Source: Fistulifera solaris
Taxonomy: Eukaryota
NCBI GenBank assembly: GCA_030295235.1
Contig: AP026129.1
Location: 868,001 to 932,000, forward strand
DNA length: 64,000 nucleotides
Reading direction: 5' to 3'
Part shown: positions 29,382 through 52,361 of the stretch, one piece after another
How positions within the stretch are numbered: position 1 is the first letter of the stretch
Layout of the letters: the number at the start of each line of letters is the position of its first letter
Made by a program: the position numbers and the translations under genes
The notes under the pieces: model-generated
Told to the model about the DNA's origin: nothing
Databases searched by the model: none
The model's input: the letters and a program-made list of their open reading frames with translations, nothing else

Positions 29382-30926
29382 ATGGGGCGTGTAACACGAT
29401 CGAATGGCAAGCTCTACTGGCTGGTTACATCAATTAGCTGTCCGCTGATCATCATTACTGTTTCTTTTTCCGTTCGATATGCTCGCCGACCGACAATTTA
29501 TTCGGAAATTAGTGATGGAGACTCGTTAAGTCCAACCCCACCCAATAATGTTCCAGTGAGCGCACCCTCGAGCGCGGGAGAGACTCAAGCGCCGACTCCG
29601 AAACCGTATCCTTGCTTGACTTCGCAAAGGGAACTATATTATGCAGTGGACCGCTACTGGAGTGATTCCACCCGAGCGATGGTGGAGGGAAAATACGGGC
29701 CCATCGAGAATTGGTGTTTTCCTACGGTGACCAGTCTTTCAAAAGTTTTTGATATGGAGCGCAATCCTGGTCTAATAAAAGGATCGTACGACTTTTTATC
29801 TGAATGGGACATGAGCCTTGTGGAGGATACAACCTATATGTTTCAAGGAAATACACATTTTGACGGAAGGGGATTAGATAACTGGAACGTGTCTAGTGTG
29901 AGAAATATGGCTGGAATGTTTCAGGGTAAGCAGACGTGACTACGAGCAGGCGCTCTTGTGTCTTCCTGTCTCACTTAATTTCCTCCATAATCAATCAATG
30001 AAGGTGCTTCCAATTTCAACGGCAACTTGAGCGATTGGGACGTATCATCTGTGGAAGACATGGCTTCGCTCTTTCAAGGAGCATTGATTTTTGATGGCGA
30101 TATATCGCGATGGATAACTTCACGTGTTACTTCTATGTCACACATGTTTGCAGGGGGAAACGCGGGATCTACTTCGTTTCGTGGGGGTATCGGAAGTTGG
30201 GACGTTTCGCACGTGCGAGATATGTCGTGGATGTTCGCAGGTGCTAGTCGCTTTAACGATGATTTGTCAAAATGGCACACTCGACATGTTACAGATTTTA
30301 GCTGCATGTTTCTAGATGCTTCTTCGTTCGGTAGCGACTTGGAAAAGTGGGAAGTAGCGTCAGCTGAAGATCTTTCTTTCATGTTCGCCAACGCAACTAG
30401 CTTTCAAAGTCACTTATCAAAATGGAAAACGTCCAAGGTTGAAAGTATGAGTGGTATGTTCAGCGGGGCAACGCAGTTCAATGGCGACATATCGGCATGG
30501 GATGTTTCTTCTGTTAAGGACATGTCGAGTATGTTTTCGAAAGCCACTTCTTTTGACGCTGATCTCTCTGAGTGGGAGACATCAAGTGTCACTGCAATGG
30601 AGTTGATGTTTAGCGAAGCAACATCCTTTCGAGGCAGCAGCTTATCGTGGTGGGATGTATCATCCGTTGAGGTTATGGATTGGATGTTTCGGGGTGCTTT
30701 TAGATTCAATGCCAATCTGACGAGATGGGATGTTTCAAATGTTTGGTCTATGGTAGGCATGTTTGAAGGAGCATCTTCATTTTACAATAACCTTTGTCCG
30801 TGGGGTGGTATCCTGAGTCCAAGCGTTCGAATAGATGGGATGTTCACCAGCACATCATGTCCACGCGAAACGGATCCGATTCTGTATGCTGACATTCCCG
30901 GGCCGCTATGCTTTGCTTGCTCATGA
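29382..30926 (+). CDS. DUF285/BspA-like repeat surface protein with N-terminal TM anchor
   Basis: About 12 repeats of 25-26 aa of the form WDVSSVxDMSxMFxGAxxFNxDLS. P/T/S stalk. Intron 29926-30003. Confidence 0.9.
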
Positions 30927-39896: not shown

Positions 39897-40765
39897 TCAT
39901 TCAGCTTTCTTTCGCACACGAAGTATTTCTCGTATATTCCCCGCCCCGGTATCGAACGATTGTACTACTTCGACCAGGAGTTTATACTTCTCACTCCAAG
40001 CCAGGAAAGCATCTGTTCCACCACCCACTCCAAAGTAAAATCGCTTTGTCGCCACCAATGCGCTCCCCGTATCGCTCAAGTGTCGACTCAGCAACAGCGC
40101 CGTCTCTTCGGCTGCCTGTTCAGAATACAAGGTCTCAGACGCCAAAACAAGATCGACCTGGCTAGGTAGTTGAAGGCTCAACCAATCACCATGACCAAAT
40201 TGAACATGATTGAGAACTGCGCTCACTATAGTGGCTGGATCGTTGGGTTGCTCCATAATACTAGCCGCGTTGAGAATCGAGTTGGGTATGGTTGCTTGCT
40301 GTATAACAAAATCATTGAAATCCGTCAAATACAAATGAAACGGCTCTTGCTTTTGTTGCAACGCCACACGCAATAGATAGCAAGCCGGTAAAGCATGTCC
40401 ACAACCAATTTCGAGCACGGAGGAGTACTTGGGCTGTTCTTTGGCCAAAAGTGCAGCAAATCCATGCTGCATTCCCATACTTTCATTCCCCCTTCGTAGA
40501 CGTTGGGCAACAAGTCTGTCGTTTCCCACACGAGGTTCGTGGATGATAACGTGTTTGCTTTGGTGTCAATGCAGCGCAATGGAAGACTTTGTTGGGGAAG
40601 CTCAAGTTCCACGTACACCATGGCTTGCTGGACGCGGTCCTTCAACACTTGCTCAAGGTCGGTGACCCATTGATGAGGCGGACCGACTTGACGTTGAGAA
40701 GGAGTCGTCAATGTCGTGTTTTTCTTTTCCTGTGGGGCGAAAAAGTCAAACGAAAATGAACTCAT
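39897..40765 (-). CDS. Seven-beta-strand protein methyltransferase, METTL18/Hpm1-like
   Basis: TDLLPNVYEGGMKVWECSMDL, VLEIGCGHALP, LASETLYS, ATKRFYFGVGGG. Indel near 40447. Confidence 0.85.
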
Positions 40766-41332
40766 CGTCTTTCTTTTCCATCATAAGAAGCAACTATTGA
40801 GTGGAAACTGTTATTCTAGTAAAGATGAGGATCTGTCTTTGAATCTATTTTTATCGACCTCACATAAATGGCATCATAAGACTCAAGTCAACACTTTACG
40901 CTATAGTAACCTTCGATGCTATGATTTATATTTTGCCGTAGTACATCTAGCAACGAAGGATTCAATACTAAGCTTTGTCGCTCTTCGAATTATGCATTCT
41001 GTTAACACCATCGCCAAATTGGGTACCTATTTAGAAAGTGCAAGTTCAGGGCGTGGTTTAAGAACTCGTTGAATGAGGGTGGGGAAGAAAAGAAAAGACA
41101 TCCAGTATAATATCAGACGGTCGATCGTGCGCGTCGTAGGTCAATCCATTGATTTGCGTCACAATTGAGACGAAAGATATGAAACCATCCAACGGCGCGA
41201 TGAAACTGTTACTCCGTAACTACAAAGTGACTTCGGATTAAAAGCTTTTCTTACTACTGTGGTTCATTAACTACGGAGTATTCTCTTTGCAAATTTTCTG
41301 CGCAATCATGAAAGGTATGCAAGGAACAAAAC

Positions 41333-42415
41333 CTAAGCCTGAGCAATTTCCGACTTGCTGCCAGCATTGTGGACAAAGCGGAAGTTGCAATCGTGGACGT
41401 TGGCAAAGTTGGCCGATCCGCTGTTTTTCAACTTCTGGCAGAGAGACTTCTCAAAAGCACCATGCATGAACGCCAACTTCTCCTCCGAGACGCCTGCCGC
41501 GAGCGCATCATCATCGTTGGGGCAGAGACGGCAATCGGGCTGTGTAATGGGAGTGACACGAGCGACCAACAATTTGGCTTCACTAACGGCCATGACATCG
41601 TCATCGTTGGGGCACAAACGGCAATCAGGCTGCGCCAAATGGTTCGGCATGTCAATGTCCGCAACGCTGTGGAAGTTTCCGAGTCCGTATCCGACCGATG
41701 CAAAAGCCTCGTTGTACGCCAAGACAACACTCTGATCGACCAACTCCATGTCGCTCTCGGAAAGATTGTGAAGAGTTCCACGGAAGACAACTTGCGCCTC
41801 GGTGCTCTTTTTCAACTTGCCCTGGATCGGCAAACTGACATGGGGCTGACCGGGCATATCCAAGAACGAGAAAGAGCAAGCATGCGCATGCGCAAAGTTG
41901 GCAGAACCCGACTGGCGCAAGAGAGCACAGAACTCGTCTTCGAAGCTGCCATGAAAGGCCTGGAGCTTTTGGGTGCTCTTGAACGCGGCAACGATATCAT
42001 CATCGTTGGGGCACAAGCGGCAGTCCGGCTGCATCCATCCGACCTGAACGTAACCGAGGATCATCTGTCCGTTGGTTTCCTTGAGAGCCATCGTATCGTC
42101 ATCGTTGGGGCAGAGACGGCAGTCTGGTTGATTCAAGCCAACAAAATCGGGCACTGCAGCAGCAGACTCGGCTTTGAAGGTATCCATGGTATATCCGGCC
42201 GCGTCGTAGACTTTGTTGTAGGCGGTCTTGATTGCCTTGCCGATGAGGATCATGTCATCGGACGTGGCTTCGTGCTTCATACCGTGAACCACCACACGGA
42301 CATCGGCACTGTCGGACTTCTTGACACCGAAGAGCTGGTTGGCAGCAGCACGGAGGTTGAAATCAATGGCGCTGCCGAAGAGGAAAGAGGTCAATGCGAG
42401 GGAACTGAACTTCAT
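41333..42415 (-). CDS. Secreted two-domain protein carrying four identical QPDCRLCPNDDD peptides (candidate peptide precursor)
   Basis: Signal peptide MKFSSLALTSFLFGSA. Tandem duplication of a domain of about 150 aa, each copy holding two peptides. Intronless and intact. Confidence 0.85.
   Translation of the reverse strand: MKFSSLALTSFLFGSAIDFNLRAAANQLFGVKKSDSADVRVVVHGMKHEATSDDMILIGKAIKTAYNKVYDAAGYTMDTFKAESAAAVPDFVGLNQPDCRLCPNDDDTMALKETNGQMILGYVQVGWMQPDCRLCPNDDDIVAAFKSTQKLQAFHGSFEDEFCALLRQSGSANFAHAHACSFSFLDMPGQPHVSLPIQGKLKKSTEAQVVFRGTLHNLSESDMELVDQSVVLAYNEAFASVGYGLGNFHSVADIDMPNHLAQPDCRLCPNDDDVMAVSEAKLLVARVTPITQPDCRLCPNDDDALAAGVSEEKLAFMHGAFEKSLCQKLKNSGSANFANVHDCNFRFVHNAGSKSEIAQA
41507..42130 (-). 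repeat. Four dispersed 36-bp repeats encoding QPDCRLCPNDDD
   Basis: Copies at 42095-42130, 41996-42031, 41597-41632 and 41507-41542. All differences between copies are synonymous. Confidence 0.95.
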
Positions 42416-43163
42416 TTTGGGATGAGATTTGGAAAAACTGATGCTGATTTTTTTGGAAGCAAATGCGAATTGTGAGCTCAATTTGACGAGAATCAAATGA
42501 CTTTACGGATGCGCCGATGCCAATTTCGAGTATCTCGGTTCACACATAAAAAGATCCCGTATGATTTGAGTGTAAAAGCTGTACGATCTTTTTGACATTA
42601 GAAAAAAAGTGAGGAAATTTGAATAAACGAATACTAATGAATCAAATTCATTGGACAAAAAGTTGTGAACCTTACGACGTGCTCTAACGTCATCCTCGAT
42701 AACGACCACGGAGTTGACGTTGAACTTGGATTGATGGTCATGTTTACGTAGTAGTTTATTGTTTCGCTTTTATTTGTTCTTCTTTTGTGCATTTAGCTTG
42801 TCCCGAATCAATCATCGAATTTGATTGAACAAAATTTTCGAAAGGCAGAAAGGAATTTATGAATATCGACTAAGGATAGCATTAAGCTTGATAAATGGTA
42901 TTGTGACGCCAAGAGTAGGCCGTAGGCTACCTTTCGACGACTGGAATGACATTAAGCCCCGCTTGGTTTGCTTGATGTTGCCCCGGACTATTATTTTTTT
43001 TTTCGCCGCGACGATGATGCGATGCGGGCATGACAATAATCGTTAACATTCATTTGGCCTTTATTCTATTATTCGAATTCGACCCACGAATGCTCTAATT
43101 ACGAGCGTTTACATAGTCTTACGTCTACCTTACAAAGTAATTGAAGTAACAATCGACGAAAAC

Positions 43164-45252
43164 ATGCTGATACCGCCTCCGACGACAGCCCCCGCGACAC
43201 CATCACGGGTGGCTCGAACTCTCTATCGACATTTACTCAAATGGTGCCGAGCCACCGATCCCGCCCTTCCATTGACACAGTGGCTACCGCCCATTTATTT
43301 ACGAGCACCGGAAGAAGTTGAACCGTATCATCTCGAAATGTTAGCGACAACCGACAACAGCAACGACGCCGCCGTACAATTGGCTCGACAAACACTACCG
43401 CACGCGCAATTTCACAAACATCATTTGGTCGTTCCGATTATGCATTCGGGTGACTTGCGGAATTTCTTTCGCGCTCTCTTTCGCATCAATGCTTATTTAC
43501 CCGTCGAAGGATCGTATCAGAAGAAACGGATCGACAATGCCTTTCAAGCACTGAAATCACTCAATCAATTAACGTCCGAGACGATCGCTCCTTTCGCACA
43601 ACAACGCCGGATCGATCGTACCGGAGTGCAATTTTCGGTCGGACAAGTAGTACGGCATCGCGAAAAGAGATGGCGGGGCGTTGTTGTGGGATGGGAGAAA
43701 GCGAATAGTGCCCCTCTTTCGTCCTTGACGACCAAGCAATACTCGTCCGAGTCGACCGTCACGTATCATGTATTAGTCGATGCCGGAGATGCCCACCAAA
43801 TGAATAGAACCACGAAAGGTATTACCGTTGCATTTCAGCATGAAATAGAACGAGAAACGAATCTCATGTTACAACGGATTCGACACGAAATGGTGGATGA
43901 CATGTTTGATGGATTTGATCAAGGCGCTTTTGTTCCACCTCCCCTTCTGGCGTATACGTATCCGAACGATGAGATTCCTCATCGTCGCTCACATAGTTTG
44001 CCCCGAGATATCGAAGATTTGGCCAAGCAAATGGTGCAGAGCGTCCAAGATTTTGCGAACGAGTTGGAACGAATCATAGAGCAACAGGCTGGCGGTCCTT
44101 TGGATGGCTTGCATTTGACGGCACTGGCCGCCGGCCACGTGGCTCCGACCAAAAATCGAATTGTCGTTTGTGCAACAAGTGATTCAAGAGTCGGTTCATC
44201 CCATTACCATGGTGGCATTGCATGTACGTGATTTGATTGCCTTTGTCGATCAATTGCAAGATGCCTTTACCCATCGGCTACGCCAACATCCGCCGATTCA
44301 TTTCCGTGTGGGCGACGTCATTCGACACAAGGTCTTTGGGTACCGTGGAGTAGTAACGGGGTGGGACGATCGTCCCGTGGTGGATGTTTCGCGGTGGGAT
44401 GGCATTCAAGCGCTGATACAACAAGGGAAAGATCCCAACGAAATGCCATTTTATCATGTGGTGCGGCATACTGAACACCATGAACGCGGTCTGGACACAC
44501 CGGGAGCGGCGATGCGGTATGTTTGTCAAGAAAATTTAGAAGTTTGTTACGAAGTTGCCGATTTGGATGTGGATTTTGAAGATCCGGCGTGGAAGCGAGA
44601 AGGAGACGAGTTTATCCCCCCACCATTGCTGCAATTCAAATACGGACAAGAAACCGATCCTTCGATTGAACGGTGTTTGACGCAAATGATGCAGTTAATC
44701 AATGAATGGCAAAGCGATGCCGTCCGGAACACAGTATCACCCGATTCGGTTGCAAAGAATTTATCGGTTTCGAATTTCATGACATGCTTAAAGTACTGTT
44801 CAAAGTTATCGGATGCCAGCACTCTTCAAGAGGCTATCCGCGAAATCCGACAAGCGAATCCAAACATTGATTTGCGATGGAAACTGGCGGCCGCCTTGGA
44901 TCAAACACTTTCGGGAAAGACAGAGAAGGCTCTTGAATTATTCAAAGCATTAGTGAAAGAGGATCCCCTGTACGTAGAAGCGTGGAACAAACGTGCGACC
45001 TGCGAATTCATGTTAGGAATGTACGACGAAGCCGCTTTATCTTCCCATAAAGTACTCGAACTGGAACCGAAGCATCTACCAGCTTTGAATGGACTTGGTC
45101 TGATACACTTTCAGCGTACGCGATTTGACATGGCTGCTGAATGCTTTTCGCAAAGCATCCAACTCGATCCTTGGTCACCAGTGGCTCCAAAACTATCGAG
45201 ATGCCTTGATATACTGAATAAGGTCCAGCATCACGATGTTCTAGATAGCTGA
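43164..45252 (+). CDS. Protein with two YccV/HspQ-like (hemimethylated DNA-binding) domains and C-terminal TPRs
   Basis: FSVGQVVRHREKRWRGVVVGWE, FRVGDVIRHKVFGYRGVVTGWD..PFYHV..RYVCQENL, and TPR text EAWNKRAT..ALNGLGLIHF. Indel near 44155. Confidence 0.85.
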
Positions 45253-46063: not shown

Positions 46064-47504
46064 ATGAAAAAACAGAATTTTTATCTTTTAGCGACGTCAA
46101 CTTTGGCCACCCGTTCGTCAGCTCTTCCCTTTCGGGGACGTTCACCCAAAACGGAGGAGAACGGTCAAAAGAACGACGCAGTAAAGCTGTCGAACAATTC
46201 TTTGTTTCGGAAACGCCCGAAGCTTCGGCTGTGCTTCACCAAAGTGTTCACCAAGAAGCGACGGAGATTTTCGACTTTCTGGTCGACACACGACGCACCC
46301 TGCATCGACATCCGGAGCTCATGTACCAAGAAGAAGAAACATCCAAGACTGTTCAACAAATTCTCCGAGAACTTGACATTGAATTTACGACAGGTTGGGC
46401 TGTCAATACCAATCCAGATGTTCATCCGGGTCCGGGCGGCTACGGAGTGGTTGCCGATATTGGAACAGGAACGGAGCCGTGTATCTTGTTACGAGCCGAT
46501 ATGGATGCATTGCCCATTATGGAACAAACAAACGTCGATTTTAAATCGCAATATCCCAACAAGATGCACGCTTGTGGACATGACGGTCATACGACCATGC
46601 TGTTGGGAGCAGCTCGTTTATTGAAAGGAATGGAAAACAGTTTAAATGGCACCGTGCGACTGGTCTTTCAACCTGCTGAAGAAGGCGGGGCCGGAGCCAA
46701 ACGCATGCGTGAAGAAGGAGTGCTAACGCAACAACCGAAACCGGCCTTGGCCATGGGTATGCATGTTTGGCCTACCTTGCCTTCCGGTGTCGTTGCCGCC
46801 CGACCAGGGCCGTTGCTGGCGGCATGTGAACGATTTGAGATCACGTTGCAGGGCGTAGGAGGACATGCTGCCATGCCACATCTCGTAACGGATCCGATTG
46901 TGACGGGGGCGTCTATTATCATGAATTTACAGACCATTGTTTCTCGCAACACCAGTCCACTGGAGGCTGGAGTTTGTAGCATCACAAAGTTCGAGGCCGG
47001 TTCAGCATTTAACATTATTCCTGATTCGGCTATTATTTGGGGAACTATCCGTGCTCTAAGCACAGAAACGTTGTTGGAATTACGCGACAGGGTGCAGCAC
47101 ATCGTGCAATCAACAGCGACAACGTATGGATGCAACGCGACCATCAAATACAGCCCTGACTACTATCCACCAACTGTGAATGATCCTGCTTTATTCGAGT
47201 CCCTTTCGAAAGAAGTAGGTGCACTGGTGTCGGAGGAGGGAAGATTGAGAGAAACGGAGCCCACCATGGGCGCCGAAGATTTTTCATTTTTGCCGAGAGC
47301 ATACCCAGCACCTTTTATCTTCTGGGACAAGGCAGCGGACAAGTGCCACCTACGAACTACGGTTTACATCATCCCCAATTCGCTCTAGATGAATCCGTCC
47401 TTACGAGAGGCGTGGAACTACACGTCAATTGGGCGGTGCACGCTCTCAAGAAGCTGGCCGAGAATGACGAAACGAGTCGGCAAATAAGGACTGGTGAATT
47501 ATAA
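46064..47504 (+). CDS. M20D amidohydrolase (IAA-amino acid hydrolase/ILR1-like)
   Basis: RRTLHRHPEL, LRADMDALP, MHACGHDGH, FQPAEEGG, GGHAAMPH, GAEDFSF. An indel near 47290 restores LHHPQF..TGEL*. The 5' end is uncertain. Confidence 0.9.
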
Positions 47505-49674: not shown

Positions 49675-52361
49675 ATGAGCCGATTCGTTCGGGGCCTCTT
49701 ACCTGCATGGGTCTACGTCTGCTGCTGGGCAAGAGCAATGGCGTTGAAATGCGAAGTAGATGCCGATTGCGAGTCAGGCATGGCGCCAGGTTCTATCTGC
49801 CGAAAAGACAACACATGCAGCAATCCATTTGAGAGTGGCTGTCTCTATCATAAACTTCCATCCTGGAAGAAGAAACGAGTTTGCAATTCGGAGGACCCTC
49901 CGGACGCGGTCGCGCGAGGAATCTGTCGCATGTCTAGTTTTGATTATATGGAACTTCGAATATTTTCTGAAAATTGGGAATCTGTCTTTTTTGAAGCCTG
50001 GATATTGCAAGTTATTCTCAGCGAGATGTTAGACGTGCCCAGCACCATAGAAACGGGTAGTTACGAGGCTCGACTGAACTTGTATCACCCCGATAGCCCC
50101 TTCGAGTACGGCCCCAGCAATAATTTTGAGGTGCTAAAAACGGAAACATGCTTGGAGATTGTCGTAAGGCTCGCAAAGGCCCCGAAGACTATCAGCCTTG
50201 CGCTCATTTCGTCCCGGAAGTGTGGGATATAAGTTCATTTACCTACATGGAAGATCAGGTTGAAAGTCAAGCAGAGCCTTTGTTAAGTATGGGCATTCTA
50301 GGTCAAGAAGGATGGTTCGTGACGAAGTTTACGGTGGAAGCTGATCCATCGCTTGGTACATATTTGGGATTAGTGGGACAGAACGAAAAACTAGCTGAGA
50401 TGTTCTTGAGACCAACGACATGGAAAGACTATTGCGAAAAGGTATCGCTGAATGGCTGCTCGGTTCCCGATGGTACAGCGCAACGAGCGCCAATAACGGA
50501 CGACGAGGAAGATCGAATGTTTGTCGAAGGCTTGTACACCGGCTTCTTTCGCAAAACCGAGGAAAACGATTGCACCATACCAGGCAAGAATTGCACAGGG
50601 CACATGGCCGACTATCCGTGCTCTTGGTTATCTTTCATGGAATCCCAAGCGTATCACTTTAATATTCCCGTAAGCAGCAGCGGAAACCAAATGGGATCGA
50701 GAGGCTATAGCCACAGTCAGTTAAAAGAAATTTGGCGTGCGGCAAACGCAACCCGGTCGAATTGTATGGCTTATTGGTGGTTTCCTGAAGCCTTGTACCA
50801 CGAATTTAGTGGAACCGACGCCGAGTTTTTCAAAATAACACTACCTCCTGCGACTCGAGAGTGCTATCGTGCTAAGCAACGGCTTGAATTGATGTGTACG
50901 GCAACGAGAGAGGAGAGACTAGGGACTCCCGAATCTGCGTGCGATAATCAGCCCGACTTAATCGACAAGGCAATAGCCAAGTCCCTGCATGATCTTACTT
51001 ACAAGAATAGCTTTGGCGAGAATGAGGCATCTACAAGTCCTGGTTACGAAGTGTTGAAGTTGTTTACAATCGACAACTTCCACTTATCCGACATTTACAG
51101 TTATTGGGAAAAGAAGCCTAGCCCACGTGAGGCTGTTTGCCAGTGGATTGTTGACAACATGGAGTATGTGGAACGCTTTATTCCCCCCTCATATCCTAGA
51201 ACGACTCAAGCGATGAACGAGAAGAACAATCCTCTTCTTTACGCGAGTATCGGTGCCGGGTCATTGGCTACTACTCTTGTGGCTCTGACAGCCACTGTCA
51301 TTTGGCGTAAAAGACGCCAACGACCGGTAGTAGTTGCACAAGTTGAATTCTTGATGTTGGTCTTGTCGGGCGCTGGGATTTTAGCTGTCGGGTCGATTTT
51401 AGCTGGAGCAATGCCGAGTAACAGAAGCTGTGTGGCTGCTTGGTGGTTGATTCTGTTCGGTTACACATTAGAACTGATTCCGTTGATTGTTAAAATGACC
51501 GCTATTCATCGCGTCGTATCGGCCGCTAAACGCTTACGTCGGATTGTACTAAAGCGAACCTCGCTTTTGGGAGCTGTTGGTGCTGTTTGTTTCTTGGTTG
51601 TTATTTATCTTGCAGTTTGGACAATAGTGGACCCGCCTCGTCGAACAGAAGAGCTCTTCCTATCGGAGAGTCGGAATTCTCAAGGATTAGTAATCGTCGA
51701 AACTAGCTACTATTGCAGATCAGGAAATATGGCATGGCCTTACATTGCGACGGGATGGATCGTGATGCTTTTGGTATGGGCATCACTTATCGCATTTCAA
51801 GCGAGGAAGGTGGATAAGGATTTCAATGAGTCTCGGACGTTGGCATTTATGATTTATTCTCATTTCGTTTTCATCACACTCGTCGTCGTGACGTATGGTC
51901 TGTCAGGCGAAGTAAACGAGACGACACTACGACGAATGAGAAGTCTGATTTTAAGCGTCGATACGATGTCTGCTCTTTGTATCTACTTCTTGCCCATTCT
52001 GACCGACGACGGAACTTCCTCAAGACTCGGCAGAGAGGTTTCTGGGTTACACCAGGAAACCAATGGACGGGCTAATGCTTTTGAGAGAATAAGGGGTGCT
52101 CTTGCATCCGGGCTTTCATTAATATCAGCAGTTGAGCAGGTTGATGCAAATGACACTGCGGAGAGTGAACGGGTGGAGGACAAGGAGCAGGGACCACCGC
52201 AGCCGTTTGAACGAATAAGAGGTGCTCTTGCCTCCGGACTTTCATTAATATCGGCAGTTGAAGAGGTTGATAGTAGTGACGCGTTAGACAGTGAACAAGT
52301 AAAGAAGCAAGAAAGGGGCATTATGGAGTCGCCAGCCATCGAACAAGCTACCGAACGATAG
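49675..52361 (+). CDS. Class C (7tm_3, GABA-B-like) GPCR with a large Cys-rich, solute-binding-like ectodomain
   Basis: Signal peptide, long ectodomain, seven hydrophobic helices with AQVEFL, WTIVDPP and FNESRTLAFMIYSHF. Indel near 50143. Confidence 0.85.
52080..52271 (+). repeat. Direct repeat of 66 bp (126-bp period) in the GPCR C-tail
   Basis: FERIRGALASGLSLISAVE(Q/E)VD at 52080-52145 and 52206-52271. Confidence 0.9.

Follow-up and report, generated by a model that had tools for sequence, protein, structure and literature searches.

A candidate four-core precursor of peptides resembling the diatom sex-inducing pheromone SIP+ in Fistulifera solaris

Introduction

Why would a diatom gene carry four exact copies of one 12-residue peptide within a single protein? 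The question is raised by a gene at 41333-42415 on the minus strand of the stretch analysed here, 64,000 nucleotides of Fistulifera solaris contig AP026129.1 (positions 868,001 to 932,000; hereafter the window, to which all coordinates refer). A first-pass annotation made from the letters of the window had read the product as a multi-core precursor of a disulfide-ringed peptide similar to SIP+, the sex-inducing pheromone of Seminavis robusta. About one fifth of the world's photosynthesis is due to diatoms, and very little is understood of how they signal during sex; the chemical structure of SIP+ was reportedly described by Klapper et al. in 2023. Here we find support for that reading in the cores themselves, in a homologue from S. 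robusta and in the way cores vary across a previously unassigned gene family, which is a likely source of diatom SIP-type pheromones. We consider it probable that the window gene encodes the precursor of a SIP-type secreted peptide, with the release, modification and sexual role of that peptide argued by analogy.

Four identical cores under purifying selection

The gene is an uninterrupted open reading frame (ORF) of 360 codons, and a six-frame scan with translation recovered the four copies of QPDCRLCPNDDD that the first-pass annotation had described, at the same positions and exact in every residue (Table 1). No further copy of the core motif is encoded in any of the six frames of the window. 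Any two copies differ at 4-6 of their 36 bases, all of these differences being synonymous, so that the codons vary, as had been claimed, with zero amino-acid changes; the four identical cores are under purifying selection. Codons differ at eight of 24 compared positions within the cores; the codon usage of the gene itself would lead one to expect 5.24 of 12 per pair, and at identical residues outside the cores 25 of 42 differ. Since codons differ, these figures suggest that the core copies are old, yet not fully independent, having diverged somewhat less than their surroundings.

Each core contains the predicted heptapeptide C-R-L-C-P-N-D, and the flanks of the four cores read L-N-Q-P-D/T-M-A, W-M-Q-P-D/I-V-A, L-A-Q-P-D/V-M-A and I-T-Q-P-D/A-L-A.

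A Seminavis robusta homologue encodes residues that fit SIP+

A profile search with the window protein and its relatives retrieved, at E = 1.1e-53, a protein of S. robusta itself (CAB9524856.1, gene Sro1596_g284750; P0068 in our set), which is annotated as 'expressed unknown protein' only and has no Pfam family at E ≤ 0.001. It consists of a leader, the stretch F-R-A-A-A-A-N, and three units each bearing D-F-S-G-C-A-L-C-P-P-D-D-D-A, that is, one core per unit and C-A-L-C-P-P-D three times in all. BLASTP aligned P0068 with the window protein over 374 columns and two units at 23% identity (E = 7e-17), its cores falling on window cores 2 and 4 (aa 132 and 295), and the window protein has two further cores in the loops between strands beta2 and beta3. 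The order of secondary-structure elements is the same in the AlphaFold2 (AF2) models of the two proteins; in that of P0068, with a mean predicted local distance difference test score (pLDDT) of 62.5, each core lies right after beta3 in a weakly predicted loop. A word-indexed search started from the S. robusta protein retrieved only the protein itself.

In published reviews, SIP+ is an 843 Da peptide containing a sulfated hydroxyaspartate and two hydroxyprolines (PMC12352721), with the formula C29H45N7O16S3 (PMC12843257). In its N-terminal ring, which contains Ala and Leu, a disulfide joins two Cys, and a b4/y3 break parts this ring from a C-terminal portion made of two hydroxyprolines and a sulfooxy-Asp (PMC12843257); the sulfated residue is placed at the C-terminal end, and the ion is reported at m/z 842. 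We computed that C-A-L-C-P-P-D with one disulfide, three added oxygens and one SO3 has the formula C29H45N7O16S3 and a mass of 843.21 Da ([M-H]- 842.20). The core of Sro1596_g284750 thus fits the composition, tail order, formula and mass reported in these reviews, and the search that the first-pass annotation had recommended, for an S. robusta homologue encoding the residues of SIP+, found one in which ring and tail correspond. From the position frequencies of the family, the chance that a family heptamer would read CALCPPD or CLACPPD is ~0.0009, and both sequences are absent from the other 182 family proteins.

Sro1596_g284750 occurs once in the supplement of the S. robusta genome paper, where it is listed as 'Core' with the values 0.0008, 0.0213 and 0.038. 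In that paper core denotes presence in all 49 strains, and the averages given for nonsynonymous diversity, synonymous diversity and their ratio (piN, piS and piN/piS) are 0.003, 0.022 and 0.14. The three values for this gene look like the same three quantities and, if so, they place it under stronger-than-average constraint. Its identifier is not in the supplements of two papers on sex in S. robusta (PMC8027222, PMC12618581), and it goes unmentioned in the main texts of two recent preprints that deal with mating-type genes of diatoms. Among the texts covered, a full-text search by gene identifier, core sequence and topic returned no paper tying SIP+ to a gene and no report of a ribosomal modified-peptide precursor of this kind from diatoms. 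The solving of SIP+ gave the first sex-inducing pheromone and took hundreds of litres of culture, according to one of these reviews (PMC12352721), and a 2025 review from the group that solved it lists pheromone biosynthesis as an open topic.

Cores are alike within proteins and unlike between them

The word-indexed search with the window protein yielded 38 relatives at E ≤ 1e-3, and in a HMMER scan, with a profile built from 26 sequences, 406 cluster representatives passed E ≤ 1e-3; of these, 210 also passed 1e-10 and 66 passed 1e-30. Among members that carry a name, all are raphid pennate diatoms: F. solaris, which has several family genes of at most 90% identity to the window protein, Mayamaea pseudoterrestris, S. 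robusta, Epithemia clementina, and a transcript labelled with the taxon identifier of Pseudo-nitzschia heimii.

The family shares the motif C-x-x-C-P-x-D-D. Of 299 cores matched by a pattern in which position 7 must be D or E, 268 have D at position 8 and 195 have it at position 9; among 221 per-protein-distinct CxxC heptamers, P occupies position 5 in 114, position 6 holds P in 80, N in 49 and D in 39, and position 7 is D in 153. The residue preceding Cys1 varies, being mostly G, D or Q. The ring residues and positions 5-6 differ between proteins and are homogenised within each, as in PDCRFCPPDDD, PDCTLCPPDDD, KCTHCPDD and QCRRCNSDD (four copies each) and FLCRHCPDDD (six copies). The first-pass annotation had reckoned that homologues keeping the Cys residues alone, with variable residues between them, would speak against a peptide; what we find is conservation of P5, D7, D8 and D9, and variable residues that are uniform within proteins.

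In a set of 183 family proteins, where fragments and near relatives of the window protein are included and every CxxC counts, of the family type or not, 145 have at least one CxxC, 110 at least two and 38 (some of them fragments) none. All heptamers are identical in 52 of the 110 with at least two, and at least two are identical in 89. Identity at the five non-Cys positions averages 0.78 within proteins (502 pairs) vs. 0.37 between them (77,313 pairs). Cassette number also changes: cores have been lost in P0017, P0022 and P0034, and tandem arrays with a 15-residue period occur (six cassettes in P0112, seven in P0061 and six in P0057), such as six units of H-L-P-S-C-R-W-C-G-N-D-D-V-L. This variation in copy number implies that recombination among cassettes occurs. 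Peptide precursors of the multi-copy kind, such as yeast alpha-factor and fungal repeat precursors, are classically recognised by copies that are identical within a precursor, differ between precursors and vary in number.

A protein of 1185 aa (P0131) has eight units with a period of 144 residues, seven of them with an identical G-N-G-V-C-R-R-C-S-P-G-L-T-F core that has no acidic tail; from its sequence it may represent a side branch of the family whose chemistry differs. A profile scan of metagenomes found eight related loci, whose cores and codons added little. In four of them (L003, L004, L005 and L007) the reading frame breaks near the core cassettes, which suggests introns next to the cores, and the window gene is intron-free; in another (L001) the cores are slightly heterogeneous within one protein.

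A duplicated scaffold is predicted to present the cores in loops

Plain self-BLAST of the window protein gave the trivial diagonal only; we therefore used an off-diagonal self-alignment, which pairs aa 32-189 with aa 200-352 at a local score of 335, against 32.8 +/- 3.5 in 30 shuffles. Residues are shared at 68 of 158 aligned positions, and at 44 of 134 (33%) outside the cores. The protein is a tandem duplication of a unit of ~155 residues with two cores per unit, and because the domain was duplicated, cores 1 and 3, and likewise cores 2 and 4, lie at equivalent places. The statement in the first-pass annotation that the core flanks are unrelated is accordingly wrong for the protein as a whole; they are unrelated solely between the two cores of one unit.

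The AF2 model of the window protein, computed from a 45-sequence alignment, has a mean pLDDT of 76.6 and a predicted template modelling score (pTM) of 0.76. Each unit is predicted to form a ferredoxin-like beta-alpha-beta-beta-alpha-beta arrangement, with pLDDT mostly 83-97 in the scaffold blocks. The CxxC knuckles lie in separate loops of low confidence: pLDDT falls below 50 at residues 103-112 and 261-267 in the beta2-beta3 loops of cores 1 and 3, and the beta3-alpha2 loops of cores 2 and 4 form blocks of 56-62. Each unit also has two extra Cys (C163/C180 and C326/C343) that show little or no variation in the alignment and probably form a scaffold disulfide.

Foldseek against the PDB returned generic tandem ferredoxin-like proteins only, with TM scores of at most 0.28. 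VIA-align, which is independent of Foldseek, placed extracellular SEA domains at the top (MUC16 SEA5, Z 7.8; Gpr126, 6.9; TMPRSS6, 6.6), values in the background range of the tool that may reflect a mere common arrangement; its best match, 7sa9_A, has Z 7.8 and a root-mean-square deviation of 3.4 over 107 residues.

Weighing the explanations

The homogenised cores, the S. robusta homologue and the fit of its core to SIP+ together lead us to regard a SIP-type precursor as the probable identity of the window gene, and we hold with clearly less confidence that its core product is a sex pheromone in F. solaris. Several points weigh against going further, and both grades were set with four of them in mind. 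The scaffold is well conserved (Y66, N67, H155, R167, S169-G-S171, C163, C180) beyond the apparent need of a passive carrier, so that the protein may also act in its intact form. No core of the family is commoner than C-R-L-C-P-N-D, which occurs in 24 proteins and is common to divergent paralogues that include several F. solaris genes; a spread so wide is more in keeping with a signal used in common, or with an ancestral state, than with a sex pheromone strictly confined to one species. We know of no sexual cycle described for Fistulifera, and a link between expression of the window gene and mating type or the sexual size threshold would be by analogy. The same holds for secretion, modification, cleavage points and a signalling, in particular a sexual, role of the window protein, all of which are ascribed to it by comparison with SIP+. 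We also recognise, on reading the sequence, no dibasic (K-R or R-R) or other cleavage site around the window cores. As for S. robusta, the order of Ala and Leu inside the ring is given in the reviews in a figure only, and since Sro1596_g284750, as a 'Core' gene, would be in all 49 strains, any mating-type specificity would have to be transcriptional.

The conservation of the scaffold, with its several invariant polar residues, is also what an intact protein would lead one to expect, one that is secreted or at the cell surface and whose CxxC and acidic loops bind Ca2+ or another metal or make adhesion or matrix contacts, SIP+ being then unrelated or a lineage-specific breakdown product. The D-D-D run after the ring is highly conserved, a trait of acidic Ca-binding loops too; the fold most resembles extracellular ferredoxin-like SEA domains, with a Z of 7.8 in the background range, and there are many paralogues per genome. 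Such a protein would leave unexplained why ring residues are alike within and unlike between proteins, why short tandem cassette arrays exist, and why the S. robusta member spells the residues of SIP+ with a matching formula; the loss of single cores while the fold stays further indicates that paired CxxC metal sites are not required. We judge this explanation unlikely. That the CxxC motifs are redox-active sites of a secreted thiol-disulfide oxidoreductase-like factor is prompted by the presence of four of them in one protein and by the fact that CxxC followed by Pro is found in some redox proteins. Here the predicted beta-alpha-beta-beta-alpha-beta fold is not thioredoxin-like, the motifs lie in flexible loops and not at a helix N-terminus, there is no Pfam match and no thioredoxin-family entry among the structural matches listed, and many members have lost CxxC partly or wholly (the 38 of 183 without any, some of them fragments, among them); we rate a redox role as very improbable.

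It seems to us just as improbable that the repeats are identical through recent duplication or gene conversion, with no selection on the peptide and a coincidental match in S. robusta. Core codons are indeed somewhat more alike than expected and cassette number shifts across the family, as conversion would predict; against this, the DNA of the cores differs throughout at synonymous bases while the surrounding units are 33% identical, and a chance match of the S. robusta core to SIP+ has the low probability per family heptamer given above. A precursor of a SIP-type peptide remains the explanation that we prefer.

Proposed mechanism and implications

If the window gene is such a precursor, its leader would take the protein into the secretory pathway, where the two tandem scaffold domains would fold and display the four cassettes in exposed surface loops. 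Each CxxC pair could then be oxidised to a small disulfide ring as in SIP+, Pro5 of each core hydroxylated, and Asp7, perhaps also Asn6, beta-hydroxylated and O-sulfated. The heptapeptide C-R-L-C-P-N-D would be excised by cleavage of the loop, probably followed by exopeptidase trimming to protected ends, which would stop at the ring on the N-terminal side and at the modified Asp on the other. Because the residue before Cys1 is variable and D8-D9 are strongly conserved, we infer that the acidic follower is a recognition element for modification or C-terminal cutting. The output would be up to four copies of one SIP+-type extracellular signalling peptide per protein. For C-R-L-C-P-N-D we compute 817.32 Da with the disulfide alone, ~833.32 Da after a single hydroxylation, 849.31 Da with two oxygens added and 929.27 Da ([M-H]- 928.26) when SO3 is added as well, each of which should gain 2.016 Da on reduction.

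A broader and decidedly more speculative proposal, which we offer as a possibility and would not expect to hold in full, is that the whole family (406 representative clusters, with named members from raphid pennates only) constitutes a genome-readable code of diatom peptide pheromones. Each member would free its own C-x-x-C-x-x-x heptapeptide, SIP+ being the chemically known case, with the scaffold and the F-x-L-R-A-A-A leader as a recognition or self-processing module; F. solaris would make C-R-L-C-P-N-D to control a life-cycle switch, possibly a cryptic sexual one, that a synthetic peptide could trigger.

Were the precursor reading true, SIP+ would join the peptides that are made on ribosomes and modified after translation, and candidate pheromones of other pennates could be read from genomes and synthesised, as for the family members of P. 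heimii, Epithemia and Fistulifera. The modifying enzymes and receptors should then be findable through co-expression, and there would be a practical handle for inducing sex to breed oil-producing strains.

Gene features and genomic neighbourhood

Table 1. Features of the candidate precursor gene. Positions are those of the window; E, strand and H, helix in the AF2 model, numbered by residue.
Feature	Position	Strand	Remarks
Coding sequence, single exon, candidate four-core peptide precursor	41333..42415	-	360 aa + stop; relatives by word-indexed and profile search
Hydrophobic N-terminal leader, ~aa 1-17	42365..42415	-	Sequence reading; 26 aligned homologues
F-N-L-R-A-A-A-N stretch, aa 19-26	~42338-42361	-	Conserved in alignment
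Scaffold unit 1, aa 32-189	41849..42322	-	Self-alignment; E34-46 H52-73 E75-88 E115-127 H148-167 E178-186
Core cassette 1, aa 96-107 (QPDCRLCPNDDD)	42095..42130	-	Predicted heptapeptide CRLCPND aa 99-105, nt 42101-42121; beta2-beta3 hairpin loop, unit 1
Core cassette 2, aa 129-140	41996..42031	-	Predicted heptapeptide aa 132-138, nt 42002-42022; beta3-alpha2 loop, unit 1; aligns with S. robusta CALCPPD core
Scaffold unit 2, aa 200-352	41360..41818	-	Self-alignment; E205-214 H220-241 E244-256 E279-290 H311-330 E341-349
Core cassette 3, aa 262-273	41597..41632	-	Predicted heptapeptide aa 265-271, nt 41603-41623; beta2-beta3 loop, unit 2
Core cassette 4, aa 292-303	41507..41542	-	Predicted heptapeptide aa 295-301, nt 41513-41533; beta3-alpha2 loop, unit 2; aligns with S. 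robusta CALCPPD core

The N-terminus of the window protein is hydrophobic (MKFSSLALTSFLFGSAI; read from the sequence), a property kept in the 26 aligned homologues and in P0068, and the AF2 model has pLDDT below 50 over residues 1-28. Just past this leader, the stretch F-N-L-R-A-A-A-N, similar to F-R-A-A-A-A-N at aa 22-29 of P0068, is conserved through the alignment and may serve in leader-type recognition or in sorting. The protein has no Pfam family match at E ≤ 10, and in the ESM Atlas the top score was 0.77, under the useful range.

Targeting to the plastid or periplastid compartment was considered and set aside. The diatom plastid motif calls for a Phe at +1 and a transit region with few acidic residues; by eye, the likely leader is followed here by I-D-F-N-L-R, with several Asp in the next 20 positions. 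An ORF of 337 aa at 41462-42475 (+), antisense over nearly the whole precursor gene, was likewise rejected as a shadow ORF because the conserved homologues are all in the minus-strand frame.

By Pfam, the genes flanking the precursor encode a methyltransferase-like protein, two YccV-like proteins, an M20 peptidase, a FAD/NAD-binding oxidoreductase and a class-C seven-transmembrane (7TM) receptor, and form no obvious biosynthetic cluster. The M20/M25/M40 metallopeptidase (46321-47388 (+), E = 2.3e-40, with dimerisation domain) lies ~4 kb from the precursor and belongs to an exopeptidase-type family; by family it is worth a look as a candidate trimming enzyme. The receptor is a 737-aa ORF at 50148-52361 (+), ~8 kb from the precursor, with a class-C G-protein-coupled-receptor 7TM domain (Pfam 7tm_3, E = 8.7e-33), and the closeness of a receptor-type gene to a peptide-signal gene may be coincidence. 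The adjacent, overlapping ORFs at 43164-44231 (+) and 44209-45252 (+) each have a YccV-like hemimethylated-DNA-binding domain, the second also tetratricopeptide repeats; they may be a tandem pair, or parts of a single gene that an intron or a frameshift interrupts. Farther away, a 288-aa ORF at 30060-30926 (+) is made of DUF285 repeats (E = 3.6e-85), a family that Pfam describes from Mycoplasma and that stands here in a eukaryote-like window.

Contigs of run X1 carry a second version of the region 40300-43400 that has many substitutions and small indels and roughly half the depth; two alleles, or the two subgenomes of a hybrid genome, would be expected to look like this. The run looks like genomic DNA, because its contigs cover genes and intergenic DNA alike.

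Comparison with known systems

Rubredoxin and zinc-ribbon Cys4 metal sites are built from two jointly conserved CxxC knuckles that meet in a compact fold. No Pfam match links the window protein to them, its knuckles lie in separate low-confidence loops of the model, and single cores are missing from the homologues P0017, P0022 and P0034, with one core to a unit in P0068. Thioredoxin-like oxidoreductases differ in topology from the AF2 model, in which CxxC lies in loops.

Small disulfide or ring peptides are cut from larger folded precursors in plants, where SFTI-1 (from the albumin PawS1), the cyclotides and the lyciumins (from BURP-domain proteins) are examples and multi-core cases occur. Unlike these, the window protein has no BURP, albumin or cyclotide domain, since it matches no Pfam family up to E = 10 (BURP is missing from P0068 too, at a cut-off of E ≤ 0.001), and its ring would be a plain CxxC disulfide without a head-to-tail or side-chain macrocycle.

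Yeast alpha-factor (MFalpha1) and the Kex2-processed repeat proteins of fungi are like the proposed precursor in being secreted proteins with several identical short peptide copies, which are the same within a gene and differ between species. The cores of the window protein and of S. robusta differ from them in having no Lys-Arg or other dibasic spacers, a feature that the first-pass annotation had rightly noted for the window protein as missing Kex2-type sites, and the window cores are placed by the AF2 model in loops of folded domains, not strung along a disordered pro-region.

SEA domains, such as those of MUC16, TMPRSS6 and Gpr126, are extracellular beta-alpha-beta-beta-alpha-beta sandwiches that the model of the window protein resembles, a resemblance only. 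They cleave themselves in the beta2-beta3 turn, which is the place of window core cassettes 1 and 3; unlike them, the window protein has no Pfam SEA match and no site of the G-S-V-V-V type, and Z stays within background.

The closest parallel is SIP+ itself. The window core C-R-L-C-P-N-D, known here from the gene only, has Arg in place of Ala and Asn in place of the second Pro, and like the pheromone of S. robusta it would have a C-x-x-C ring closed by a disulfide, with a Pro/Asp tail of three residues behind it.

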